Below, one piece after another: positions 31,785-43,824 of a stretch of 64,000 nt of DNA. The stretch comes from Escherichia coli (GTDB taxonomy: Bacteria; Pseudomonadota; Gammaproteobacteria; Enterobacterales; Enterobacteriaceae). The stretch is from assembly GCF_003334385.1 (NCBI RefSeq), contig NZ_QOWN01000010.1; one strand, written 5' to 3'. The position numbers and the translations under genes are program-made. Position 1 is the first letter of the stretch; each line of letters begins with the position of its first letter. The notes under the pieces were generated by a model that was not told the origin of the DNA, ran no database searches, and worked only from the letters and a program-made list of their open reading frames with translations.

Positions 31785-33083
31785 ATGAAAGCGATCTTAA
31801 TCCCATTTTTATCTCTTCTGATTCCGTTAACCCCGCAATCTGCATTCGCTCAGAGTGAGCCGGAGCTGAAGCTGGAAAGTGTGGTGATTGTCAGTCGTCA
31901 TGGTGTGCGTGCTCCAACCAAGGCCACGCAACTGATGCAGGATGTCACCCCAGACGCATGGCCAACCTGGCCGGTAAAACTGGGTTGGCTGACACCGCGC
32001 GGTGGTGAGCTAATCGCCTATCTCGGACATTACCAACGCCAGCGTCTGGTAGCCGACGGATTGCTGGCGAAAAAGGGCTGCCCGCAGTCTGGTCAGGTCG
32101 CGATTATTGCTGATGTCGACGAGCGTACCCGTAAAACAGGCGAAGCCTTCGCCGCCGGGCTGGCACCTGACTGTGCAATAACCGTACATACCCAGGCAGA
32201 TACGTCCAGTCCCGATCCGTTATTTAATCCTCTAAAAACTGGCGTTTGCCAACTGGATAACGCGAACGTGACTGACGCGATCCTCAGCAGGGCAGGAGGG
32301 TCAATTGCTGACTTTACCGGGCATCGGCAAACGGCGTTTCGCGAACTGGAACGGGTGCTTAATTTTCCGCAATCAAACTTGTGCCTTAAACGTGAGAAAC
32401 AGGACGAAAGCTGTTCATTAACGCAGGCATTACCATCGGAACTCAAGGTGAGCGCCGACAATGTCTCATTAACCGGTGCGGTAAGCCTCGCATCAATGCT
32501 GACGGAGATATTTCTCCTGCAACAAGCACAGGGAATGCCGGAGCCGGGGTGGGGAAGGATCACCGATTCACACCAGTGGAACACCTTGCTAAGTTTGCAT
32601 AACGCGCAATTTTATTTGCTACAACGCACGCCAGAGGTTGCCCGCAGCCGCGCCACCCCGTTATTAGATTTGATCAAGACAGCGTTGACGCCCCATCCAC
32701 CGCAAAAACAGGCGTATGGTGTGACATTACCCACTTCAGTGCTGTTTATCGCCGGACACGATACTAATCTGGCAAATCTCGGCGGCGCACTGGAGCTCAA
32801 CTGGACGCTTCCCGGTCAGCCGGATAACACGCCGCCAGGTGGTGAACTGGTGTTTGAACGCTGGCGTCGGCTAAGCGATAACAGCCAGTGGATTCAGGTT
32901 TCGCTGGTCTTCCAGACTTTACAGCAGATGCGTGATAAAACGCCGCTGTCATTAAATACGCCGCCCGGAGAGGTGAAACTGACCCTGGCAGGATGTGAAG
33001 AGCGAAATGCGCAGGGCATGTGTTCGTTGGCAGGTTTTACGCAAATCGTGAATGAAGCACGCATACCGGCGTGCAGTTTGTAA
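31785..33083 (+). CDS. appA: Periplasmic acid phosphatase/phytase (histidine acid phosphatase)
   Basis: ORF trimmed to MKAILIPFLSLLIP (432 aa); RHGVRAP active-site motif. Confidence 0.95.
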   Translation: MKAILIPFLSLLIPLTPQSAFAQSEPELKLESVVIVSRHGVRAPTKATQLMQDVTPDAWPTWPVKLGWLTPRGGELIAYLGHYQRQRLVADGLLAKKGCPQSGQVAIIADVDERTRKTGEAFAAGLAPDCAITVHTQADTSSPDPLFNPLKTGVCQLDNANVTDAILSRAGGSIADFTGHRQTAFRELERVLNFPQSNLCLKREKQDESCSLTQALPSELKVSADNVSLTGAVSLASMLTEIFLLQQAQGMPEPGWGRITDSHQWNTLLSLHNAQFYLLQRTPEVARSRATPLLDLIKTALTPHPPQKQAYGVTLPTSVLFIAGHDTNLANLGGALELNWTLPGQPDNTPPGGELVFERWRRLSDNSQWIQVSLVFQTLQQMRDKTPLSLNTPPGEVKLTLAGCEERNAQGMCSLAGFTQIVNEARIPACSL

Positions 33084-33085
33084 TG

Positions 33086-33118
33086 CATAAAAAAGAGCAT
33101 TCAGTTACCTGAATGCTC
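33086..33118. terminator. Hairpin between convergent appA and etk
   Basis: Stem agagcattcag / ctgaatgctct with loop ttac; A-run on the + strand gives a U-run for the minus-strand transcript. Confidence 0.6.
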
Positions 33119-33152
33119 TGAGGCTGATGACAAACGAAGAACTGTCTAATGC

Positions 33153-33187
33153 GTAGACCGGAAAAGGCGTTCACGCCGCATCCGGCC
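33153..33187. repeat. REP element
   Basis: gtagaccggaaaaggcgttcacgccgcatccggcca, the canonical REP palindrome. Confidence 0.7.
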
Positions 33188-33197
33188 ACTTTCAGTT

Positions 33198-35378
33198 TTA
33201 CTCTTTCTCGGAGTAACTATAACCGTAATAGTTATAGCCGTAACTGTAAGCGGTGCTGGCGCGTTTAATCACACCATTGAGGATAGCGCCTTTAATATTG
33301 ACGCCTGCCTGTTCCAGACGCTGCATTGACAAACTCACCTCTTTGGCGGTGTTCAAGCCAAAACGCGCAACCAGCAGGCTGGTGCCAACAGAACGCCCCA
33401 CGACCGCGGCATCACTCACCGCCAGCATCGGCGGCGTATCGACAATCACCAGATCGTAATGGTCGTTCGCCCATTCCAGTAATTGACGCATCCGATCGCG
33501 CATCAGCAGTTCAGACGGGTTAGGTGGCACCTGACCGCGAGTAATCACATCAAAGCCTCCTTTGCCAAAATGCTGGATCACTTTGTTGAGCTCATCTTTA
33601 CCTGCCAGATATTCCGACAAGCCATGTTCATTACTCACGGTAAACAGGTTATGCGAATAACCACGGCGTAAGTCGGCATCAATAAATAACACTTTTTGAT
33701 CGGACTGGGCGATCACCGCTGCCAGAGTTGAACTGACAAACGTTTTACCACTGTCTGGCGTCGCACCGGTGATCATTAGAATGTTATTCTCCGTCTCCAT
33801 CATAGCGAAATGCAGACTGGTTCGTAGCGCACGTACGGCTTCCACAGCAGAATCCGCCGGGTTATCCACCGCCAGGAAGGGGATATTTTTAGTACGATGG
33901 CGCTGCTGATTAGAAAATAAATTTTTCTTACGCAGACGGGTGCGTTTATCCAGCCACTCGGACATTGGGATAGTGGCATAAACGCTGATGCCGTGCTCTT
34001 CCAGTTGTTCCGGGGCTTCTACACCACGACGCAACATCGCACGCGCCAGCACGGCACCCACAGAAATAAACAGGCCAAGAATAAAACCAAGCACCACGTT
34101 CAACGCTTTTTTCGGTTTCACTGGCTGCGGCTGAGTGACTGCCGGGTCGATAATCCGCACGTTACCAATGGCACTGGATTTCGAAATACTCAACTCCTGC
34201 TGGCGGTTAAGTAATTGCAGATATACCGCACGGCCCGCTTCTACGTCACGACTTAAACGCAACACTTCCTGTTGGGTGGAAGGCATTGCCGATACCCGCT
34301 TATTCAGGCGTTTGCGTTCTTGCTCCAGCGTCTGGCGTTTTTCCAGCAGCGCACGATAAGTTGGGTGATCTTTCTTATACAGCTGGGAGATCTCTGCCTC
34401 GCGGAAGGTCAGCTCATTGAGTTGATTATCAACGTTCACAATCTGCTCAAGAACGGCTTTGGCTTCCAGGTTAAGGTCAACCGAATCGCGCTGCTGGCGA
34501 TAAACGTTGAGTTTTTCTTCCGCTTGGTCCAGCTCGCTGCGCACTTCAGGTAACTGGCGCTGTAAGAATTCAAGGCTTTGTGAATCCTGCGCCGCCTGGC
34601 GAGCGATATTCTGTTGCAAATAGTTGTTAGCGATGCTGTTCAGAATACGAGTAATCAACTGGGGATCATCACCAGTCATGGTAAGTTCCAGCATCCCGCT
34701 TTCTTTACTGCGTTCGCTAACGGTAAAGGTTTCCTGCAATGCGTTAATCGCTTCCAGTTCGGTACGCTGGCTCAGGACAAACTGTGTTCCTGGTTTGGCC
34801 TTAATGTCCGCGATAGTCAGCGCAACGCCATCTTTTTCCAGACGCTGGCCGACCATACCATTGACGGTGAACTCTTCACCTTCCAGTGTATAGTGGCCGT
34901 TTTCCCCAACCGTGAGTGTCAGTTGCTGATCCTGACCATTCAGTTGTGGAATATGCATCCAGCTGATCGCCAGCTCACCTGGTTTTTCTTTGGTTAATCT
35001 CGCCCAGCCGCGACCCACAATCGGAAAATACTTCTGCTCAACTATGTCGCGCAGATTCAGTTCAGCAATGGTTTTACCGAGAATCATGCGCGATTGCAGC
35101 AGTTGGATCTCCGGTGCAGACTCGGGCGATGAGTTAGGGATCATATCGCTCAGGCCGCTGAGAATGGCGTTGCCCTGTTTTTGCTCAACCTGGACCAGAG
35201 TATCTGCCTGATAAATTGGTGTGCTTAACAGCGAGTAAGCGACAGCGATCAGCGTGAATAACGCGGTCACGCTGATAATAAACTTACGGTGATCCCATAA
35301 CTCGCCGACCAGACGAAGCAGATCGATCTCATTTTCCTGAGTGCTGCCTGGTGGCGTATTCATATTTTTAGTTGTCAT
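33198..35378 (-). CDS. etk: Tyrosine autokinase Etk (Wzc paralogue)
   Basis: 726-aa ORF; Walker A GATPDSGKT and C-terminal tyrosine cluster YSYGYNYYGYSYSE. Confidence 0.95.
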   Translation of the reverse strand: MTTKNMNTPPGSTQENEIDLLRLVGELWDHRKFIISVTALFTLIAVAYSLLSTPIYQADTLVQVEQKQGNAILSGLSDMIPNSSPESAPEIQLLQSRMILGKTIAELNLRDIVEQKYFPIVGRGWARLTKEKPGELAISWMHIPQLNGQDQQLTLTVGENGHYTLEGEEFTVNGMVGQRLEKDGVALTIADIKAKPGTQFVLSQRTELEAINALQETFTVSERSKESGMLELTMTGDDPQLITRILNSIANNYLQQNIARQAAQDSQSLEFLQRQLPEVRSELDQAEEKLNVYRQQRDSVDLNLEAKAVLEQIVNVDNQLNELTFREAEISQLYKKDHPTYRALLEKRQTLEQERKRLNKRVSAMPSTQQEVLRLSRDVEAGRAVYLQLLNRQQELSISKSSAIGNVRIIDPAVTQPQPVKPKKALNVVLGFILGLFISVGAVLARAMLRRGVEAPEQLEEHGISVYATIPMSEWLDKRTRLRKKNLFSNQQRHRTKNIPFLAVDNPADSAVEAVRALRTSLHFAMMETENNILMITGATPDSGKTFVSSTLAAVIAQSDQKVLFIDADLRRGYSHNLFTVSNEHGLSEYLAGKDELNKVIQHFGKGGFDVITRGQVPPNPSELLMRDRMRQLLEWANDHYDLVIVDTPPMLAVSDAAVVGRSVGTSLLVARFGLNTAKEVSLSMQRLEQAGVNIKGAILNGVIKRASTAYSYGYNYYGYSYSEKE

Positions 35379-35397
35379 CGTATTTTATAAACTCAAA

Positions 35398-35844
35398 TTA
35401 CCGGCTGAGGCGCTTCGCCCATTCCTGACTGGCGCGCTCCAACATACCGTAGACATGTTCAAATGCGTCCTGACTTTTACGATAGGGATCCGGGATCTCT
35501 TTCTGTTCCAGCCATTGCCCAAACAGCATTGTCTTCCCGCGGACCTCGGGAGCAATTGCGGTAACCTGAGCAATATGTTCCGACTCCATTGCCAGAATCA
35601 GATCGTAATTTCGTGCCATCTCAGCAGTGAGCTTACGTCCGGCATGTCCTTCAAGAGATACGCCATGATTAGCGGCAACATCTGCCGCTGTCGCATCTGC
35701 AGGGTGTTTTACCAGACCATGAACACCTGCCGATTTGACTTTTACGCCCGGCAGACGTTTACGCAGCAAGCGCTCGCCAATGGGCGAACGGCAAATGTTG
35801 CCGGTACAAACCACCAGGATTGAGTTAAATTTTAGTTGGGCCAT
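35398..35844 (-). CDS. etp: Low-molecular-weight phosphotyrosine phosphatase Etp
   Basis: ORF trimmed to [21 protein letters not shown] (148 aa); CTGNICRS P-loop. Confidence 0.93.
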
Positions 35845-36971
35845 GTTTGAATCCACCGTGAAGTCTCTGTCAGGTCATGCACCCCGGAAATCGTCGGTAC
35901 CAGCAGAGAAATCACACGGTTCCAACGAGCCAGCGGCGCGGTAGTGACATAAACAATGTCGTAAGGTTCAAGCTGGAATTCCGTTCCGAGTATCATTGCC
36001 GATGCGTCCTTCGCATTCAGCTGATAAATATTGGCGATTTTGCCATTCTGCTTGTTTTGCGTTGCACGAATAACAAAAATCCCCGTCGCATCAGCGACAT
36101 CCTGATTCATACCCTCAGCGTTACCCAGCGCTTCCGCCAGGGTCATACCGCTGCGGTCCATTTTCAGCGTGCTCTGTTTACCCACTTCACCCATCACGAA
36201 GACTTTCAGATCATCGTTGCGCGGAATAAATAAAATATCGCCCGGGTGCAGCAGTTTGTTCTGGCGCAAGTCGCCACGCTGCATCAGCGCATAGAGGTTC
36301 ACTTTGGTCTTTACGCCATTCTGGGTGAGCACCACGTTGCGCCAGTCTGCATCTGCGGTCAGACCGCCCGCGGCGTTAATCGCATCCATGATGGTCAGAG
36401 GAATATTGGTAATCGGCTGCTGACCCGATTTGCTGACTTCGCCGGTGACGTACGCTTTTTGCGATCGGAACGCCGCGACGCTGACATCGACTTGCGGGCT
36501 TTCAATGACTGAATCGAGACGCGCTGTAATCTCGTTGCGTACCTGGGTAAGTGTTTTCCCGGCCACTTTCAGGCGACCAATATAGGGGTAGAAAATCGCA
36601 CCATCGGCGTTAACCCAGTTGCCGGTATCACTGGCGCTACGGTATTGCCCTGCGGGGGTGGTTAGTTCCGGGTGATCCCAGACCGTAACCATCAACACAT
36701 CACCAATCCCGATACGATATTCATAGTTTGCGATTTGCTGCTCCAGCTCCGGGTTAGCCTGCGACATAATCGGTTTGGCGCGCAACTGATCAATCAATCC
36801 TGGCGTGACGGGATAGATATTGACCATTTTGTCCAGGTCATACTGATTGTCAGGTAGTTCAATGACATCCTTGTTACTGGTCGATAAATTCTGACCAGGA
36901 ACAAGGGTACATGCTGTCAAAGACAGAACAGCCAATGTCAGTACCGAAAACTTAAAAATGTTCTTTTTCAT
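35832..36971 (-). CDS. gfcE: Wza-like outer membrane polysaccharide export lipoprotein GfcE
   Basis: ORF trimmed to [21 protein letters not shown] (379 aa). Confidence 0.93.
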
Positions 36972-37016
36972 TGGTTTATATTTATCAGTCAATGTAATGT
37001 TATGAATTACGTCAGG

Positions 37017-39113
37017 TTATTGTCCAACCGGTACTTCTCGCTCTGCCGTCATTGGATAGAGCTGGTATTTGCGTGACAGCATTTGTCCACCATCACGCGT
37101 CAATGGTGTCCACGAAACCACCGCGCGGTTGCGGTTAGGTCCAATGGTCATCAAGTCGAATGGAATCGAGATATAAAAACCTTTACTAAAGCCGCCTTCG
37201 CCGTAGTCATCTTTAGATACGTTACTGATTGCCGCCCATACCCCTACCGCCACGCCGCTGTCAAAGCGTTTGGCGACGTCGATCGTTGCGCCTTTATCTT
37301 TTGCCAGATATTGCCCAACGCTAAGTTTCATCAGTACGCCATTGAGCGTCGGCGGGTTCCAGTAAGCCGTCACGAAACCTGTTGGCGTGGAATAATCGGT
37401 GAAACGCATCATGTTGTCCCAGTCACGTTGCTTCACGTAGTTAACGTCCACACCCAGCGCCCAGCAGGCATCTAGCGGGCGATAAAGCAGCTCGGAACCG
37501 ACACCGGCGTACATCGTTTCCAGATAACCGCCATACACCTGGCCATAGAAACCATTGCCTAAGTCAGCAAAATAGTTCGCCTGCAAGTTGTTGAGATAAA
37601 CGTCATTGCGAACGTAGTCACGGATATGCGTGCGCACGCGGGGCAGGGTAGAGTCCGCGGGCAACAGCGAAGACTTAAACTTGTCGTAGTTGTTGTAAAT
37701 ATTGGTGAAAATACCGCCATCAAGCAGCAGGTGGTCGGTAAACCAGTAGCGGGCACTGGACATCAGCCCCAGCTGGAACATATAGAAATCTTCCGGGCCG
37801 CCCAGCGACTGTGAAAGTGTTGGGTTGAAAGAGTAGCTAAAGCGATCTTCACGAATACGGTAGCCCCGACCAAAGGCAGAAAGATCTTCAGCTTCAACAC
37901 GTTGTTGTTGCAGTGGCTCTGATTGACCAGGCGCTGTACCTGCCAGCTGTTTGCGCAGGCTGGCTACGTCGGTTTCGGTAGTCACCATCGCCATATGCTC
38001 GCGCTTTTGCGTCACGCTAATCTTCTCAACGCCTTGCGGCAGGTTATTCACCAGAATCCGGTTGGCACGATCGACCGCTTCACGAGAGTCACGGTATTTG
38101 TATTGCTGACCAGACATATACAGTGTCTTATCGCGTAGCTGAATTTCTGGCGCGTCAAAGCCCGCGTTATACTTCAGGGCGGTAAGTTGGTTTGCTACCG
38201 TGGTGTACTGCAATCCTTCAGATTCAGGCGCAGGTTGATATGCCGGTTTTGGCGTATCGCGCAGGGCAGGGCGCAGATCGTTGAAATTGGTCCGTAACGT
38301 GAAGCCAAACATCAACGTGTTACCGCGTTCATAACTCAGGTTGAGATCTGCCCAGCTGGCTGCGCGATAAACTGCGCCGACGTTGAAATGGCTTGCCTGA
38401 GGCAGTTTGCCAGCGAAATCATTCTGGTAATTGTTTCCATCGTATTCGAGTTTCAGACGCAGGGGATTCCACGGCGTTTGATACTCAATGCCGCCAAAGA
38501 TGGAAGCCGGGCCACGAAAGATATCGCTAAAGCTGATATCGCCCGCATCGTGAGACTCTGCGCGATGACAATATTTATCGCTCACCCGGCAAAACGGGTT
38601 GGTAATATTGCCCGCATTACCGGCGTAGCCCCATGCCATCCCGAGGGTGAAATCAAATGGCCCCGCTTGCTTGCTGGCCACCAGATACTCACCGTCAAAC
38701 AGACCCGTACCAGCAATATCACGTTTACCAAACGCCACTTGCGGTAGCCAGTAACCTTCTTCCCACAGGCGAAGTTTAAAATCGAATGATTTGTCTTTGT
38801 ATGACTGATCGCCGCTGAAATCTTCCCACTGGCTATATTTGCGTGTGCGCACATCCGTATAACGAATGGTGCCTTCCAGCCATGGGAACAGCGCCACGGA
38901 GGTGGAGTAGAACCGGTATTGATCGTTATCCCGGTAGTTGACGCTGAATTCACCTTCCGGTGCGATGCGCGCATTTGGCATCTGCAACAATCCTGTGCCG
39001 CCAAAGTCTGATTGCGACGAACCCAGCGGATCCGGGTAGGTTAATACTTCAGCATGACAGGCACTGGAGACGGCAATGGCCAGGCAGCTTAAAAGATAAG
39101 AATTCTTCTTCAT
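37017..39113 (-). CDS. gfcD: Outer membrane beta-barrel lipoprotein GfcD
   Basis: 698-aa ORF; operon position. Confidence 0.93.
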
Positions 39114-39859
39114 CAGTCAGGAACACGTTGCGTTAAAACAGACACAATCTGGTCATTTAAATCAGCATATTTTTCGGGCAGTACATGCGCAGAAAAGCCC
39201 AACCAAAGCTGGCTGCCAGGCGGTGGTTCCACATGTCTTTTATTCCACAGGGCAACAGGGGCGACGACAGTCTCACCCTCAGGCGTAATCACCATAACGT
39301 TATTCTTGTCCGCGCCTGCAAGGCGGGGGTGATCTTGCAGATAATCGGTAACGCTACGGCCTGCCTGCCAGGGCAATTGCCCGGCCCCAGAAACCGCACC
39401 CAGCAGAGTAATAGTCACCGGACGCTGTACGGTATAGAGCGTATAGTCCCCGACCAACGGGGGATTGCTGTTCTCATCCACTCGTACAAAATCAGGGTCC
39501 AGTTTGACCGGTAAGCGACCAGTGATATTGAGATTGAGTAACTGCTGGCGCACGGATTTAATCGTTGCCGCCACATCGTCGTCAGCTTCTGCTTCCCAGG
39601 AAGCAAGCTGTGCCATGACATGTTGGTAGTCTTTAAGCGCTTTAGCTTTCGCCGCAGAGTCGGTCAGCAAGGCACCAGGCCACCAGAGGCGATCGCGCAG
39701 TTGCGGTTGTGTCACCAACTGGACAACATTTTCCACGGGGCCAACGGAAAGTGTCTGTTGTTCGCCAGGCAGATAAATAGTCACCGTTCCTTGCGCAAAG
39801 GCATGGGGTGTCATTACGTAAAGTACGCTGGCAATGAAATACGACTGTAATTTATTCAT
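39113..39859 (-). CDS. gfcC: Periplasmic protein GfcC
   Basis: 248-aa ORF with signal peptide. Confidence 0.93.
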
Positions 39860-40500
39860 GGTGCGGGTTTAAGAAACGTCATTTCTACGGGAATAACCCC
39901 TGCGCCTAACATTTGCCGACTTTGACGAACCTGGCCAGTAGCCGAATCGACCCAGAATGTGTTTTGCCACTGTTTTTCTGGCCGCGTGGAAGTCACCTCT
40001 TCCTGCCAGACATTACACAGCACATTGCGACCCGCAATATTCAGCGTCTCTAATCCAGCAAAGGAAAAAGTAGAACTCAGGGTCGCAGAGCGAAAATGGT
40101 TGTCTTCACTCCAGAGAATATCGCGCGTCCAGCGGCTGCCATCTTTTATTGCCAGCGCGTTACGCAGAGGGTCCTGCCCGGAATTTGTCACTTCCAGCAG
40201 ATTATTATTAAGTTTGACGGTTTTTAAAAGACGTCCATTGTGGGTAACCAGCATGGCGTTATCCTGGGATAACCATTTGCTTTGTTCTTGTTCTATATAT
40301 CCCAGTACCACAAAGATTCGTTGCCCTTCATTAAGGCGTAAATACATAGTGGAATAAGGCAACGCCTGGATCTGCTGATCCGCTACGGTGATATCCTGAT
40401 TATCGAAAAGGCTGGCGCGAAATGTATCGACCATACTTTGCTGGCTGTGCGTACATCCCGCAAGAAATAGTGCGAAAATCGATAAAATAAGAGGGCGCAC
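39856..40500 (-). CDS. gfcB: Lipoprotein GfcB
   Basis: 214-aa ORF with lipobox LAGCTHS. Confidence 0.93.
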   Translation of the reverse strand: MRPLILSIFALFLAGCTHSQQSMVDTFRASLFDNQDITVADQQIQALPYSTMYLRLNEGQRIFVVLGYIEQEQSKWLSQDNAMLVTHNGRLLKTVKLNNNLLEVTNSGQDPLRNALAIKDGSRWTRDILWSEDNHFRSATLSSTFSFAGLETLNIAGRNVLCNVWQEEVTSTRPEKQWQNTFWVDSATGQVRQSRQMLGAGVIPVEMTFLKPAP

Positions 40501-40606
40501 CTTTAATCCTTGAAAGGTTAATTAAAAAAATGCAAATCTCTAAAGCCCGGTACGAATATCGCAACCGGGTATCATTTAACTTTAATTTCGACGCGTTAAA
40601 GCAGTA

Positions 40607-40912
40607 TTAGCGTGTAGTGGACGTGGTGGTTGAGGTGTTATGAGAACCGCCATCGCCACTGTCATTTGCTGCAACAACTGCCAACGTCGCCACACCAACA
40701 GCCGTTGCCACACCGACAACTGTCGCCGTGCCGACAGCGCCAGCAGCCACGCCACCAGTGGTAGTAGCAGTCGTGGTTGCGCCGGTAGTGGTCGTTGTGG
40801 TGCCAGTAGTACCCGTCGTTGCCTCGGTCCCGTTTGTTGCTTCAGGGGCAGCAAACGCAGCTGGCGTCGTCAACATGAAGGCCATAAGGATTGCAGAAAG
40901 CTTGTGTTTCAT
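40607..40912 (-). CDS. gfcA: Thr-rich inner membrane protein GfcA
   Basis: ORF trimmed to MKHKLSAILMAFMLTTPAAFA (101 aa); long Thr/Gly/Ala/Val low-complexity tract. Confidence 0.88.
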   Translation of the reverse strand: MKHKLSAILMAFMLTTPAAFAAPEATNGTEATTGTTGTTTTTTGATTTATTTGGVAAGAVGTATVVGVATAVGVATLAVVAANDSGDGGSHNTSTTTSTTR

Positions 40913-41353
40913 AACTTTTCCTTTATTCATCGCATGGACAATACGTACGCTTGAGATCAGGATTGTCTACTTTGAGTATAACATCCTTGTGAAATCTCCC
41001 TTTCCTCATACCGCTTGCACTATATACTGCGGGTAGGAAAGGCGCGCAGAGGGAAATATAAGATTGTTAACTATCCCCCTCTGGAAATACGACTTGTGAG
41101 CATAAGATAAATCTTAGCAAAATACAAATTAAAGATAAGGAAATTGTTACGAAAGCTATTAATTATTGTTGGTAATATAGTTTCAAGTGGTACTATAACT
41201 GGCTGTTAAATGGCATTTATAACTATTAGGTGCAGAGATATTCGCTTAAATGGATTAGTTTCTTTGTGGAAAAGTAACTGATGTTATAATGTATGATGTT
41301 GACTATTGCACTATTCCAATAAAACCAGTCAGCTTTAAACAAGCAGCGTCATA

Positions 41354-41566
41354 TTAAGAGAGATAAACATTTGCCGCTGTTGGTCCTCGCAGGCCATTTA
41401 CGCGGCAAAATTCCACACGTAATCCTGGTATAAGCACTTCTGCGTCGCGGGGAGTGAATGCGGAAATATGGACCTGAACTTCTTTACGACCGTCGGAGGG
41501 GATAATGAATCCTTTGCCGCTTTTGCGATCAAAGGTTTTGACAATTCCTGTCATTTTACGGGACAA
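41354..41566 (-). CDS. cspH: Cold-shock-domain protein CspH
   Basis: 70-aa [26 protein letters not shown]... Confidence 0.93.
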
Positions 41567-41851
41567 ACAAATTCCTTACTGAAAATACTGCGCTGCACTA
41601 TACGGGGTTAATAAAATAAAGCCAGCGATATTTAAGACCGCCGGACGGCTAAAATAAAATTTGCTTAATCTCAATTATCATGCGTTAATAGCTGCGTCGG
41701 TTTGAAAGACAGACAGCATACAAAGTAGTTTACTAAAGCAGTTCTCATTATCAGGCATTATCCCCTTCTTTTGAGTCTCTCTCCTGAACACTAAGTAGTT
41801 TCTGTATTAAAGCCCTGTTTGCCGAAAGGCCCAAAATGAAGGAAGTAAAAT

Positions 41852-42064
41852 ATGTCTAATAAAATGACTGGTTTAGTAAAATGGTTTAACGCAGATAAAG
41901 GTTTTGGCTTTATCACTCCTGATGATGGCAGCAAAGACGTTTTCGTCCATTTCACCGCCATCCAGAGCAATGAATTCCGCACGCTGAACGAAAATCAGAA
42001 AGTTGAATTTTCTATTGAGCAGGGGCAACGTGGCCCCGCGGCAGCGAACGTTGTTACGCTCTAA
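41852..42064 (+). CDS. cspG: Cold shock protein CspG
   Basis: 70-aa [26 protein letters not shown]...; long AT-rich leader. Confidence 0.95.
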
Positions 42065-42263
42065 GGTTGCCATTATTACTCAACATCTCCATTTCCGCTG
42101 TCCATGTTGTCATGGTTCACAGTACCGCACATCGGCATTCGATGTGACGGAGCGAAACCCTTTGGGCGCTAAGTGTATTTTTTGTAAATCGACGATGATC
42201 ACCTTTGATAACGTCGCGCTGCAAATACGCACTGACCATGCGCCGCTGGATTTCACAAAATAA
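42051..42263 (+). CDS. ymcF: Small Cys-rich (zinc-ribbon-like) protein YmcF; start codon uncertain
   Basis: Frame of ORF 42003..42263 encodes ...[11 protein letters not shown]...CIFCKS...; no in-frame ATG before the Cys motifs, so the start must be non-canonical (TTG at 42051 proposed). Confidence 0.5.
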
Positions 42264-42468
42264 TATCAGGCTCCCTCGTGGAGCCTTTTTTATATCTGCC
42301 TTATTTTTCTTCAACGCTGTATGTATAGTAAGCGATAACCTGTTGATTATTGAATCTTTCGGGGAGATGGCTTATAACATTTCTTACCTGACCAGGGTAC
42401 CGGGAACCAACACCTTACTGGCGTGTTGCTGTCTTTTAAGACCAGAAGAGGTTAACAGTGAATATTGA
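42238..42468 (+). CDS. ymcE: Small protein YmcE (Sfa)
   Basis: ORF trimmed to [25 protein letters not shown] (76 aa). Confidence 0.85.
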   Translation: MRRWISQNNIRLPRGAFFISALFFFNAVCIVSDNLLIIESFGEMAYNISYLTRVPGTNTLLACCCLLRPEEVNSEY

Positions 42469-42631
42469 AGAGTTAAAAAAACAAGCCGAAACGGAAATCG
42501 CCGACTTTATCGCGCAAAAAATCGCCGAGCTGAACAAGAATACAGGGAAAGAAGTCTCTGAAATTCGCTTCACCGCACGAGAAAAAATGACCGGGCTTGA
42601 AAGTTATGATGTCAAAATCAAAATAATGTGA
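42458..42631 (+). CDS. gnsA: GnsA (57 aa)
   Basis: GTG start at 42458 gives MNIEELKKQAETEIADFIAQKIAELNKNTGKEVSEIRFTAREKMTGLESYDVKIKIM; start overlaps the ymcE stop. Confidence 0.85.
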   Translation: MNIEELKKQAETEIADFIAQKIAELNKNTGKEVSEIRFTAREKMTGLESYDVKIKIM

Positions 42632-42637
42632 TTTTGT

Positions 42638-42665
42638 GAACATCACCCCGTGCGAGGTGATGTTC
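42638..42665. terminator. Hairpin between convergent gnsA and yccM
   Basis: Stem gaacatcacc / ggtgatgttc; weak flanking U-tract. Confidence 0.45.
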
Positions 42666-42679
42666 CGCTTGTTGCTAAT

Positions 42680-43753
42680 TTAGTGACCAATCATTGGCGC
42701 TTGTGGAATTAAGCGTCGGTACAATTCCTCCGGCACCGGGCTTTGCCATACTCCCGCATACATTGCGTAACCAATCACCGCAAACATAATCCCCAGAACC
42801 AGTAGCGTCATTAACCAGCCAGACAACGCAAAGGCTTTTTTATTTGCCGCAGGTTTTTGCAGTGAAAAGGTCAATGTTGAGGCTACCGGACATGACTCTA
42901 CGCAAGTCATACAGCCGGTACATTCCACTGTTCGTACCTGAATTAATTTATCGACCGGGATCCGTGATGGGCAATTTTTTGCGCATTTGCCACAGTCGAT
43001 ACAACTTTCGGCATTGCGACGAATCTTAAACGGCGACAATAGCGAAACCACGCCCATCAGCGCGCCATATGGGCAAAGATAACGACACCAGGCATGGCGA
43101 ATAAACAGGCTGGCAATCAGCAAAACGGTCACGCTGATTAATGTCGCGGTCCCCATATGACGAAAGAAATCGAGCATTTTAACGTCCATCACCACGCTGT
43201 AGGGCGACAACATAAAATAGTGAATCGCCTGAGCGGGCATCAATAACGCGATATAGATAAAAAAACTCAACAGCAAATACTTCACGCCGCGCAGAGGAAT
43301 ATCCAGCCAGCGGGGAAGGACACATTGCCGACCAAACAGTTTGTTACCGAGATCGCCGATTAATTCAGAAAGCGTACCAACCGGGCATAACCATGAGCAA
43401 AAGGCCTTTTTGAGTAATAGACTGATGACGATAAAAGCGACCAATAACAGCATCGCGGCGGCGTGGACGGACGGTAACTGACCTGTTACAAGGCTATATT
43501 TCAGATTCATCAGCCCGGCAATCGGTAGCCAGCCTTCGATACCTCCCGGTCTGGCGACAAATGTCGTGCTACTTGCCGTTTCGTAATAGCGCACCCAATA
43601 CCAGAACGTGATGGCAATATAAATATTCATTGCCAACAGTAATAATTGCGTCGCTTTACGCCAGGTCGTGGCATTACGCCAGTCATTCCACGGTAATTTG
43701 CCGCCCGTCGTGCCTGGCCGCCGCTGCCAGCGGGTTCTTTTATTCTCTGCCAT
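42680..43753 (-). CDS. yccM: NapH-like membrane polyferredoxin YccM (two 4Fe-4S motifs)
   Basis: 357-aa ORF with CIDCGKCAKNCP and CTGCMTCVESCP plus CSWLCP / CRYLCP motifs and transmembrane segments. Confidence 0.92.
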   Translation of the reverse strand: MAENKRTRWQRRPGTTGGKLPWNDWRNATTWRKATQLLLLAMNIYIAITFWYWVRYYETASSTTFVARPGGIEGWLPIAGLMNLKYSLVTGQLPSVHAAAMLLLVAFIVISLLLKKAFCSWLCPVGTLSELIGDLGNKLFGRQCVLPRWLDIPLRGVKYLLLSFFIYIALLMPAQAIHYFMLSPYSVVMDVKMLDFFRHMGTATLISVTVLLIASLFIRHAWCRYLCPYGALMGVVSLLSPFKIRRNAESCIDCGKCAKNCPSRIPVDKLIQVRTVECTGCMTCVESCPVASTLTFSLQKPAANKKAFALSGWLMTLLVLGIMFAVIGYAMYAGVWQSPVPEELYRRLIPQAPMIGH

Positions 43754-43824
43754 GATTTTGCCAGTCCGTTAAGTTGTATACCAAATGCCACTATTCTAGT
43801 TGTTCTTAACTGGCTGATATTGAT

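Follow-up and report, generated by a model that had tools for sequence, protein, structure and literature searches.

A cold-shock gene cassette of Escherichia coli as a probable domesticated remnant of lambdoid phage cargo, with ymcE most likely not a conserved gene

Within a 64,000-nucleotide stretch of Escherichia coli DNA (hereafter, the window), the block at 41354–42631 is the annotated and well-known E. coli cspH / cspG-ymcF / ymcE / gnsA cold-shock locus, bordered by gfcA or appA on one side and by yccM-torS on the other. The locus and its genes are textbook features of E. coli K-12; they were already known, and finding them adds little by itself. The block comprises the following features, the last two of which describe its mosaic structure:

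41354–41566, minus strand: cspH coding sequence, 70 amino acids, TTG start, a CspF/CspH-type cold-shock-domain protein (ORF list, RefSeq, NCBIfam)
41567–41851, no strand assigned: divergent control region with the cspH and cspG promoters and the cspG 5′ UTR, of cspB type and not of cspI type (flank identity)
41696–42118, plus strand: predicted cspA-type mRNA thermoregulator over the cspG leader and coding sequence (Rfam RF01766)
41852–42064, plus strand: cspG coding sequence, 70 amino acids, a hybrid resembling cspB in its 5′ part and cspI in its 3′ part (NCBIfam, identity comparisons)
42075–42263, plus strand: ymcF, 62 amino acids, ATT start, a small CxxC...CxxC protein and paralogue of ynfQ of Qin (RefSeq, tblastn, conserved start)
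42238–42468, plus strand: ymcE (sfa; Pfam YmcE_antitoxin, PF15939), a 76-codon ORF as annotated (RefSeq, Pfam, NCBIfam)
42268–42292, plus strand: intrinsic terminator of the cspG-ymcF unit with a 7-bp GC-rich stem, a 5-nt loop and T6, inside annotated ymcE (terminator scan)
42333–42457, plus strand: conserved non-coding-like segment upstream of gnsA with a putative promoter and a leader of ~70 nt (column conservation, motif alignment)
42458–42631, plus strand: gnsA, 57 amino acids, GTG start, GnsA/GnsB family (PHROG, PDB, nucleotide identity)
41358–41925, no strand assigned: mosaic segment A, homologous to phage cargo between Q and holin (cspF, leader, 5′ part of cspB; blastn, identity matrices)
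41926–42290, no strand assigned: mosaic segment B, homologous to phage cargo after Rz (3′ part of cspI, ynfQ, terminator; blastn, identity matrices)

The first-pass annotation had described a roughly 1.3-kb AT-rich block, and with 42.8% GC against a window mean of 51.4% (s.d. 3.8, 1278-nt windows) the block indeed falls among the lowest 3.5% of 1278-nt windows. Small csp genes are generally AT-rich, so composition is not diagnostic of foreign origin, and we dropped low GC as decisive proof of it. Of 5426 complete E. coli genomes, 5365 contain at least 80% of the block, and both E. albertii (L007) and an Escherichia genome of ~93% identity (L006) have the cassette at this site too; it is effectively fixed and now core to the species. 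No phage gene, integrase, att site or other phage remnant was found flanking it, and the nearest tRNA is 19 kb away. The cassette is therefore not inside a prophage today, and is to be read as a phage-derived remnant rather than as a moron of a resident prophage.

A genome-wide gns scan, run with peptide patterns over 100,044 species genomes, yielded only the E. coli-like L006 and E. albertii L007 among the matches listed, the patterns being too degenerate. Two further candidates were discarded as divergent relatives: P0004/L070 proved to be an E. coli genome (99.5% identity) that has lost part of yccM by deletion, and P0233/L069 looks like an error-ridden assembly in which the neighbouring genes are all called as short fragments.

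At the left end of the block, cspH on the minus strand and cspG on the plus strand form the divergent pair proposed earlier, separated by 285 nt. Both encode proteins of ~70 amino acids with a cold-shock domain that match curated models, placing them in the CspA family: CspG scores 179.2 bits against the NCBIfam equivalog NF007378 (cut-off 144), and CspH 176.1 bits against NF012008 (cut-off 141). Induction upon temperature downshift, a trait of CspA-family genes, is indicated only indirectly, by the RefSeq product names and by the cold induction of the Qin neighbour YnfR. Members of the CspF/CspH subfamily, CspH included, are reportedly not cold-inducible. Among Escherichia, substitutions in cspH are concentrated at third codon positions (3/4/26 by codon position, p ≤ 2e-5), and cspG shows the same bias (p ≤ 2e-5). 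The control region between the two genes is more constrained, with 6.0% of columns variable among seven Escherichia sequences compared with 14–15% in the flanking coding sequences. Long leaders had been proposed for both genes. This stands for cspG, whose leader and coding sequence match the cspA-family thermosensor RF01766 over the full model (positions 1–428; 159.3 bits with a gathering score of 78, E = 5e-43), and is not confirmed for cspH; the cspG leader takes ~156 of the 285 intergenic nucleotides. We noted no difference between cspG and the known thermosensor family, which covers the chaperones CspA, CspB, CspG and CspI, whereas CspH belongs to the CspF/CspH subfamily.

Directly downstream lies ymcF ("cold shock small protein YmcF" in RefSeq), a 62-amino-acid CPCC...CxxC protein encoded right after a csp gene, as in the YmcF-like family; the corresponding Pfam label (PF23641, a small zinc-ribbon) was read on a Citrobacter prophage copy, not on YmcF of the window itself. 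The gene had been taken to start inside the 3′ end of cspG, which applies only to the mechanical ORF opening at TTG 42003. In the curated annotation the gene opens at ATT 42075, 10 nt past the cspG stop, and this ATT, the gap and a Shine-Dalgarno sequence formed by the stop codon plus GG are kept in six of six chromosomal and phage lineages; E. coli phage paralogues also carry an in-frame TAG eight codons upstream of the ATT. YmcF homologues sit directly downstream of csp in nine phage records (tblastn), and over the aligned stretch YmcF is 66–84% identical in amino acids to the phage copies, with identical length, ATT start and spacing. Its substitutions (3/2/21 by codon position, p ≤ 2e-5) bear the mark of a coding gene. 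We consider ymcF to be co-transcribed with cspG and probably coupled to it in translation. The hairpin at 42268–42292 would end this unit, and an equivalent hairpin with a T-run follows the stop codon of the ymcF-like gene in E. albertii, 2H10, mEp460, Qin and a Citrobacter prophage (six lineages including the window).

The last gene of the block, gnsA, begins within the final codons of annotated ymcE, as the first-pass annotation stated: its GTG at 42458 sits 11 nt inside the ymcE end in RefSeq. GnsA matches PHROG 2301 (E = 1e-33) and PDB entries 4XO1 and 4XO2, which are GnsA (E about 1e-31), and Pfam PF08178 is found on all Gns homologues. It shares 65–67% amino-acid identity with phage GnsB, with 72–75% nucleotide identity to gnsB across 42439–42632, and its substitutions fall at third positions (2/0/14, p ≤ 2e-5). 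According to a preprint (bioRxiv 10.1101/2024.03.27.586906, citing Sugai 2001), overexpression of gnsA or gnsB leads to more unsaturated fatty acids. The family is very small, with 87 clusters in a set of 5.8 billion proteins, and is limited to Escherichia/Shigella, Citrobacter and Franconibacter. Away from the yccM site of Escherichia, gns genes were found in phage genomes, in intact-looking E. coli and Citrobacter prophages and once in Franconibacter, where the surrounding chromosome is not prophage and a faint DUF551 hit lies alongside.

Upstream of gnsA, the segment 42333–42457 shows zero substitutions among five E. coli; among seven Escherichia it has two substituted columns and one 6-nt indel, compared with 9.8% variable columns in gnsA and 14.1% in cspG. 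It contains a candidate promoter at 42350–42378 with a –35 element TTGAAT (42350–42355), a 17-nt spacer and a –10 element TATAAC (42373–42378), followed by a Shine-Dalgarno sequence, GAGG, at 42448–42451. An automated promoter scan made no gnsA promoter call; the assignment draws on the sequence motif, TTGATTATTG / TTGnnn-17-TAtAAC, which aligns upstream of gnsB in 2H10, Qin and a Citrobacter prophage. A structured riboregulator in the putative gnsA leader is not supported, the leader being less stable than shuffled sequences (z = +1.4).

In between, ymcE had been reported to start inside the 3′ end of ymcF. On the RefSeq annotation this is accurate, the two sharing 26 nt up to the end of ymcF at 42263; ymcE itself, however, fails tests for a conserved coding sequence. 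In E. albertii and L006 the start codon reads AGG instead of ATG; L006 also carries a 6-nt deletion and an in-frame TGA, and the E. albertii YmcE model requires a CTG start. Substitutions are spread over codon positions (8/11/7, p = 0.61), whereas cspH, cspG, ymcF and gnsA are all third-position biased. No match was found by tblastn in 50,697 phage records (E ≤ 1), nor in PHROG, and across most of the ORF (42291–42438) the only similarity to phage is the common promoter-like motif of 21–25 nt. The YmcE family comprises 28 protein clusters, all from Escherichia/Shigella, the sole exception being a partial record, labelled Salmonella, from a contig of 532 nt. The E. coli genomes examined carry the ORF intact and annotated, and it has Pfam and NCBIfam models; it spans the cspG-ymcF terminator and the strongly conserved stretch upstream of gnsA. 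Given the lost ATG, the absence of third-position bias and the lack of a phage homologue, ymcE is probably not a conserved protein-coding gene.

This bears on a current reading of the locus, in which none of the three overlapping small genes is spurious and ymcE and gnsA form a type II toxin-antitoxin module whose overlap provides translational coupling. The 11-nt overlap with the upstream ORF first fits the usual antitoxin-toxin layout, and databases follow suit: gnsA appears in RefSeq as a "GnsA/GnsB family addiction module toxin", PF15939 is the "YmcE_antitoxin" family, and YmcE-GnsA is listed as an E. coli type II pair in PMC8484670 (citing Wei 2015). The intact ymcE ORF of E. coli strains would also agree. 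Like type II modules, the two are small, adjacent, co-oriented ORFs with a short overlap; unlike such modules, they are not both conserved and co-inherited. Besides the missing start codon, the in-frame stop and the flat codon-position pattern described above, the supposed antitoxin ORF holds a conserved intrinsic terminator and a putative gnsA promoter, and no ymcE homologue stands beside any phage or prophage gns, where an unrelated 76-amino-acid ORF is found instead, 170–200 nt upstream. Moreover, two O157:H7 strains retain ymcE but carry an A7-to-A6 frameshift in gnsA. Such a module is thus unlikely in our view, and the label "YmcE-GnsA toxin-antitoxin" is doubtful.

The arrangement of csp and gns genes had been likened to modules of lambdoid prophages. 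This likeness is real at the nucleotide level, with 69–80% identity in both of the modules concerned. In every gns-carrying phage or prophage examined, the order is Q, cspF(–)/cspB(+), holin-lysozyme-Rz, cspI, a ymcF-like gene, the 76-amino-acid ORF and gns, followed by terminase. The K-12 counterparts of the cassette are accordingly cspF-cspB and cspI-ynfQ-ynfR-ynfN-gnsB of Qin, within the order quuQ(ydfT)-ynfS-cspF/cspB ... essQ-ydfR-rrrQ-rzpQ-cspI-ynfQ-ynfR-ynfN-gnsB; YnfR, a small protein encoded beside cspI, is cold-induced (PMC6001520). The same two-module layout is found in the functional phages 2H10, mEp460_ev081, Tritos, HannyBb and PhiR42_1, in Citrobacter prophages that also encode terminase, portal and capsid, and in all 48 gns-carrying IMG/VR contigs, none of which has the fused layout or ymcE (0/48 each); the fused layout was observed only at the Escherichia yccM site. 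In 2H10, where the holin-lysozyme-Rz cassette stands between the modules, the stop codon of cspB and the start codon of cspI are ~3.2 kb apart.

Cassette and Qin/2H10-type phages thus have in common a divergent cspF/H-type and cspB/G-type pair with a common leader; a csp gene with a 62-amino-acid, ATT-initiated CxxC protein encoded 10 nt behind it, and then a hairpin terminator; and the gene families, their order and orientation, and the motif upstream of gns. They differ in that the phages have lysis genes between the modules and a 76-amino-acid/ynfN ORF between the ymcF-like gene and gns, whereas the chromosomal cassette has a single hybrid csp, lacks lysis genes and ynfN, and contains the E. 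coli-specific ymcE ORF. Lambdoid morons (stx between Q and S; bor and lom in lambda) are autonomous late-region cargo with their own promoter and terminator. The phage csp modules resemble them, occupying the classic Q-to-S site and a second site after Rz; in 2H10, mEp460_ev081, the 48 IMG/VR contigs and a Citrobacter prophage, the homologues lie at a defined late-region position with their own leader and terminator. The cassette is likewise AT-rich relative to its host and, unlike morons, has outlived its phage: structural, lysis and integration genes are gone and the cargo is core to the species.

The two halves of the cassette resemble different phage modules. By blastn, 41358–41966 is 76.4% identical to 2H10 5001–5624, the cspF/cspB pair including its intergenic leader, with cspH showing ~80% nucleotide identity to cspF of phage and Qin; on the other side, 41852–42211 matches cspI and the DNA after it at 74%, the identity is 68–69% over 42064–42290 (69% through 42290 against Qin), and 42439–42618 is 72% identical to gnsB. 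The flanks of cspG differ in type against each of three phage lineages: the 160 nt upstream are 69–75% identical to the cspB upstream region and 35% to that of cspI, whereas the 225 nt downstream are 63–70% identical to the cspI flank and ~30% to the cspB flank. Inside cspG, the first 75 nt are closer to cspB (89–93% versus 85–88% to cspI) and the last 135 nt to cspI (69–71% versus 56–62% to cspB), and sliding identity places the switch at about 41910–41950. An informative-site breakpoint at 41922–41932 within the coding sequence reached a Fisher p of 0.01–0.02, uncorrected over ~45 candidate breakpoints and not convincing by itself, which is why the mosaic claim rests on the flanks and not on this breakpoint. 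Since the cassette shares only 69–80% nucleotide identity with any phage, no donor phage can be named.

Homology by itself gives no direction, and one may suppose that the Escherichia locus is ancestral and that lambdoid phages took parts of it, either as two morons or as one cassette later split around the lysis genes. The chromosomal copy is old and core, has no flanking phage remnants, and lambdoid phages exchange modules freely, all of which would suit such a transfer. Set against it is the distribution: the two-module layout is uniform across E. coli phages, Qin, Citrobacter prophages and the 48 viral contigs, and the Citrobacter loci examined carry gns in prophages only, Citrobacter yccM having no csp/gns neighbour. 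Phage copies from different host genera are also as diverged from one another (about 75–84%) as from the cassette. Finally, a single direct-repeat deletion would suffice for the fusion, whereas the reverse path from cspG to cspB and cspI would require both a duplication and a lysis cassette inserted inside a gene. On grounds of parsimony and distribution, transfer from phage to chromosome would be the better account, and we regard the opposite course as improbable. No empty ancestral site was recovered via yccM orthologues or, among the matches listed, in the gns scan; Citrobacter yccM was rejected as a true empty site, the tor and app synteny not being conserved there.

Ordinary chromosomal paralogy—duplication of cspG/cspH and gnsA within the chromosome, with the prophage likeness reflecting mere csp family membership—might appeal to the nine csp paralogues of E. 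coli and to csp matches by blast in unrelated phages, those of Listeria and Enterococcus among them, yet it is very improbable and already contradicted by a homology that runs through non-coding leaders, a ymcF-like gene, terminator and gns in phage order and spacing, as well as by Gns and YmcF-like proteins that are essentially confined to these phages and the cspH-gnsA locus.

Taken together, both homology to prophage csp/gns modules and atypical GC were found, and the proposal of a phage-derived moron now fixed in the chromosome is supported, refined to a fusion of two cargo modules that flank the lysis genes. We think it fairly probable that the cassette is the domesticated remnant of late-region cargo of a Qin/2H10-type lambdoid phage and that ymcE is most likely not a conserved gene. 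To a more specific version we give about an even chance: cspG would be a hybrid that arose when prophage cspB and cspI recombined with loss of the lysis cassette, and ymcE would be no more than the terminator and gnsA promoter-leader, its toxin-antitoxin listing an artefact. We found no earlier description of a fused-moron origin in the literature, older subscription papers aside.

Such a history might have unfolded in three steps. A single direct-repeat recombination between cspB and cspI would have deleted the lysis genes, leaving a hybrid cspG—promoter and thermosensing 5′ UTR of cspB type, 3′ end of cspI type—followed by ymcF and the terminator; the ynfN segment would have been lost, and the remaining phage DNA removed right up to where cspH and gnsA end. 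The cassette would have formed before E. coli and E. albertii split. In its present form, cspG mRNA would be controlled by the cspA-type 5′ UTR thermoregulator, YmcF would be translated from the ATT 10 nt after the cspG stop by means of the Shine-Dalgarno sequence overlapping that stop, and the bicistronic cspG-ymcF transcript would end at the hairpin 42268–42292. With cspH read divergently, gnsA may be expressed separately from its conserved promoter and leader (about 42333–42457), its product shifting membrane lipids toward unsaturated fatty acids, and the ymcE ORF would merely happen to cross the terminator and the control sequences of gnsA.

The doubt cast on ymcE matters because lists of E. 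coli type II toxin-antitoxin systems include ymcE-gnsA, annotation propagates gnsA as an "addiction module toxin", and expression changes credited to ymcE may really reflect the gnsA leader or read-through from cspG-ymcF. As for the phage, loss of the lysis cassette would have disarmed a resident lambdoid prophage while Escherichia kept the fused cold-adaptation cassette. The locus would thereby offer a clean, datable example of prophage cargo kept after the phage itself was erased, apparently via recombination between duplicated cargo genes.

We took the layout of the cassette (41354-42631) from the window sequence, the ORF list and RefSeq annotations for E. coli chromosomes nearly identical to the window.

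Features of the cassette and its neighbours
40607-40930, minus strand: gfcA, left neighbour
40931-41353: AT-rich spacer between gfcA and cspH, ~420 nt
41354-41566, minus strand: cspH, TTG start
41852-42064, plus strand: cspG
42075-42263, plus strand: ymcF, ATT start, 62 aa
42238-42468, plus strand: ymcE as annotated
42458-42631, plus strand: gnsA, GTG start
42680-43753, minus strand: yccM, right neighbour

The first-pass annotation, made from the sequence alone, had described this arrangement mostly correctly, the start of ymcF being the exception. Its description of the block as AT-rich was borne out: GC content is 42.8% against a window mean of 51.4% (sd 3.8), placing the block in the lowest 3.5% of equal-sized windows. 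CspH and CspG score above the cut-off against their own NCBIfam equivalogs, and the Rfam cspA thermoregulator covers the cspG leader and coding region (159 bits; gathering score 78). The spacer at 40931-41353 is very AT-rich (35.7% GC) and without a phage or other match. In some genomes, those of K-12 MG1655 type among them, IS1 or IS3 insertions split the match to 40900-42700, so the window does not represent an MG1655 copy with IS1. The lowest GC of the window (down to 34%) lies elsewhere, at 53500-55700, and coincides with a 418-aa ORF (54427-55683, plus strand), presumably yccE by its position; this region may hold another horizontally acquired gene.

Sensitive blastn against 50,697 phage records returned functional lambdoid phages with matching regions, namely 2H10, PhiR42_1, PhiR63_1, HannyBb, Tritos and mEp460_ev081. 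The annotated phage order is Q, cspF(-)/cspB(+), holin, lysozyme, Rz, a cspG-like gene (cspI), a 76-aa ORF and gnsB; the Qin cryptic prophage of K-12 has the same order, plus the small genes ynfS, ynfQ and ynfR. The earlier proposal that the cassette is phage-derived and resembles prophage csp/gns modules is thus supported and sharpened by nucleotide matches to both phage modules, cspF/cspB before the lysis genes and cspI to gnsB after Rz.

Phage matches along the cassette
41358-41966: 76% identity, phage cspF/cspB pair including the intergenic leader
41852-42211: 74% identity, phage cspI and ~150 nt downstream
42064-42290: 68-69% identity, ynfQ and hairpin terminator (2H10, Qin)
42439-42632: 71-73% identity, gnsB and 19 nt of leader

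The best phage identity to any cassette segment is 74-80%, except over the opening 74 nt of cspG, where it reaches 93%. A sliding identity plot, followed by segment identity matrices against three independent lineages (2H10, Qin and a Citrobacter prophage), placed a switch from cspB-type to cspI-type sequence near 41910-41950.

Identity of cspG segments to the two phage types
160 nt upstream of cspG: cspB-type 69-75%; cspI-type 35% (effectively unalignable)
First 75 nt of cspG coding sequence: cspB-type 89-93%; cspI-type 85-88%
Last 135 nt of cspG coding sequence: cspB-type 56-62%; cspI-type 69-71%
225 nt downstream of cspG: cspB-type about 30%; cspI-type 63-70%

Judged by its sequence, the cassette is a mosaic of two phage modules. 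Because an informative-site test within the cspG coding sequence alone was only suggestive (p=0.01-0.02, uncorrected), the case rests on the flanks of cspG. In the simplest history, a resident prophage carried cspB and cspI as direct repeats, and one deletion between them would have removed holin, lysozyme and Rz and created a hybrid cspG, with the ynfN segment and all remaining phage DNA lost later. At the cspH end, phage homology stops no more than 4 nt from the stop codon; at the gnsA end, it stops 1 nt beyond it. We infer both the direction of transfer and the single-event deletion from parsimony and distribution; an empty ancestral site, sought by genome scan and among yccM orthologues, was not recovered. 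In Qin (L004 6806-6976) and the Citrobacter prophages (L012 and L013, both 4521-4691), a conserved small gene on the opposite strand, ynfU, separates cspB from the holin gene; its product is a putative zinc-binding protein (Pfam PF23499). The chromosomal cassette lacks ynfU, which fits a deletion of that interval.

GnsA is a member of PHROG 2301, and the Gns family is small: a set of 5.8 billion proteins contains only 87 clusters of it, which come from Escherichia/Shigella, Citrobacter and Franconibacter. Citrobacter gns sits in an intact-looking prophage laid out as in the lambdoid phages, with HNH, terminase, portal, protease and capsid genes downstream; Franconibacter gns is chromosomal, in a setting unlike a prophage and with just a faint DUF551 hit close by. 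All 48 gns-carrying IMG/VR viral contigs recovered show the two-module layout wherever their sequence suffices, and none has the fused cspH-cspG-ymcF-gns arrangement or encodes a YmcE homologue. The cassette query also matched 96 plasmid places, all via csp. One of them, on E. coli plasmid ECdb0033_p7 (L067 3023-3196), is a truncated 57-aa cold-shock-domain gene with 81% identity to cspG that adjoins an IS3 transposase, so plasmids are a further vehicle for csp genes.

The exception in the first-pass layout was the claim that ymcF begins inside cspG, which holds only for a mechanical ORF starting at TTG 42003. The curated ATT start lies 10 nt past the cspG stop codon, which together with the following GG forms the ymcF Shine-Dalgarno sequence. 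Start, spacing and 62-aa length are kept in E. coli, E. albertii, phages 2H10 and mEp460, Qin and a Citrobacter prophage; in the copies from E. coli phages, the frame is closed by a TAG eight codons before the ATT. YmcF and YnfQ are clear paralogues, both with an ATT start, and tblastn found YmcF-like ORFs directly 3′ of csp genes in nine phage records, including one Morganella and one Klebsiella phage. A GC-rich hairpin with a T6 run (42268-42292), 5 nt past the ymcF stop, is a terminator kept after every ymcF-like gene examined; because of its position and conservation, we read cspG-ymcF as a bicistronic unit under a cspA-type leader. YmcF and YnfQ were reportedly described as cold-shock proteins by D'Lima et al. 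in 2017. YnfR, a small Qin protein encoded beside cspI, is cold-induced (PMC6001520). This 21-aa protein (MKAPSGAFLL...; L004 4189-4254) is encoded across the ynfQ terminator hairpin in Qin. Near its N-terminus, YmcE (..RLPRGAFF..) is a same-frame translation of the 3′ arm and T-run of the homologous hairpin (window 42264-42295), and the ynfR position in the window is without an ATG. A sub-threshold Rfam match links the ymcF 3′ end and terminator (42221-42301, plus strand) to the Salmonella sRNA STnc220 (34 bits; gathering score 60; E=0.0017), which raises the possibility that this sRNA is the 3′-terminal part of a Salmonella transcript homologous to the csp-ymcF type.

Several results argue against ymcE as a conserved gene. 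The annotated frame starts inside ymcF, crosses the terminator hairpin and the putative gnsA promoter and leader, and runs into gnsA. Its ATG (42238) is AGG in E. albertii and in L006, a ~93%-identical Escherichia genome that also has an in-frame TGA, and the E. albertii YmcE database protein needs a CTG start.

Substitutions by codon position in seven Escherichia sequences
cspH: 3/4/26, p<=2e-5
cspG: 4/4/22, p<=2e-5
ymcF: 3/2/21, p<=2e-5
gnsA: 2/0/14, p<=2e-5
ymcE: 8/11/7, p=0.61

With tblastn, YmcE matched nothing in phages at E<=1, and it has no PHROG. It forms only 28 clusters, several with altered N-termini, confined to Escherichia and Shigella plus a single partial entry, labelled Salmonella, on a contig of 532 nt. 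The ymcE/ymcF and gnsA/ymcE overlaps noted at first pass stand as annotated, but ymcE itself, with its ATG lost in sister lineages and its 8/11/7 pattern, is probably not a conserved gene. Pfam labels the family "YmcE_antitoxin" and RefSeq calls gnsA an "addiction module toxin"; ymcE-gnsA also appears among the type II toxin-antitoxin systems listed in PMC8484670. Unlike such a module, ymcE-gnsA does not appear to be a conserved pair.

The 125-nt stretch upstream of gnsA (42333-42457) is more conserved than any cassette coding sequence. It is almost invariant, with no substitutions in five diverse E. coli and, in seven Escherichia sequences, two substituted columns and one 6-nt indel, against 10-15% variable columns in the adjoining coding sequences. 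It holds TTGAAT, a 17-nt spacer and TATAAC, which align with the sequence ahead of gnsB in three phage lineages and would constitute a gnsA promoter with a leader of ~70 nt; an automated promoter scan did not call this motif. No unusual RNA structure was predicted in the putative leader, which is less structured than shuffled controls (z=+1.4), and promoter and leader may not fully account for the conservation. According to a preprint (bioRxiv 10.1101/2024.03.27.586906, citing Sugai et al. 2001), overexpressing either gnsA or gnsB increases unsaturated fatty acids and rescues growth defects at low temperature. GnsA structures have been solved (PDB 4XO1 and 4XO2). Two independent O157:H7 genomes, from USA and UK bovine isolates (L064 and L068), have gnsA annotated as frameshifted and ymcE still as intact. 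Alignment places a 1-nt deletion in the gnsA A7 run of the US strain (window 42475, codon 6), the UK case being known by annotation flag only; gnsA may be a pseudogene across the O157:H7 lineage.

Of 5426 complete E. coli genomes, 5365 contain at least 80% of the cassette, and in nearly all records the best match reaches at least 95% identity. E. albertii is collinear with window 33192-52628 at 90% identity, and L006 carries the cassette directly beside appA. The fusion event would therefore be older than the E. coli/E. albertii split. The 8.3-kb group-4-capsule block gfc-etp-etk is absent from an ST131 genome (L005) and L006, and E. albertii has the gfc form (compared: window 33076-41351, covering etk-etp-gfcEDCBA and the AT-rich spacer; L005 3990-4015; L006 8895-8901). 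The junction coincides exactly with the cspH stop codon, and the final cspH codons are synonymously recoded between the two forms (TAT CTC TCT TAA versus TAT TTG TCT TGA). In ST131, appA as annotated shares its last 13 nt with the 3′ end of cspH. In about one-third of complete E. coli genomes, the match begins only at about 41353.

The locus is already known, all its genes having been named and studied in K-12. The paralogy of cspB/cspF to cspG/cspH, reportedly described by Yamanaka et al. in 1998, and that of gnsA/gnsB, reportedly described by Sugai et al. in 2001, have long been known. The literature searched, which covered little of the older work, yielded no prior account of a fused-moron origin or of doubt about ymcE. 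What is added here is a firmer and more precise reading of the phage origin of the cassette, together with the correction of two "overlapping gene" details.
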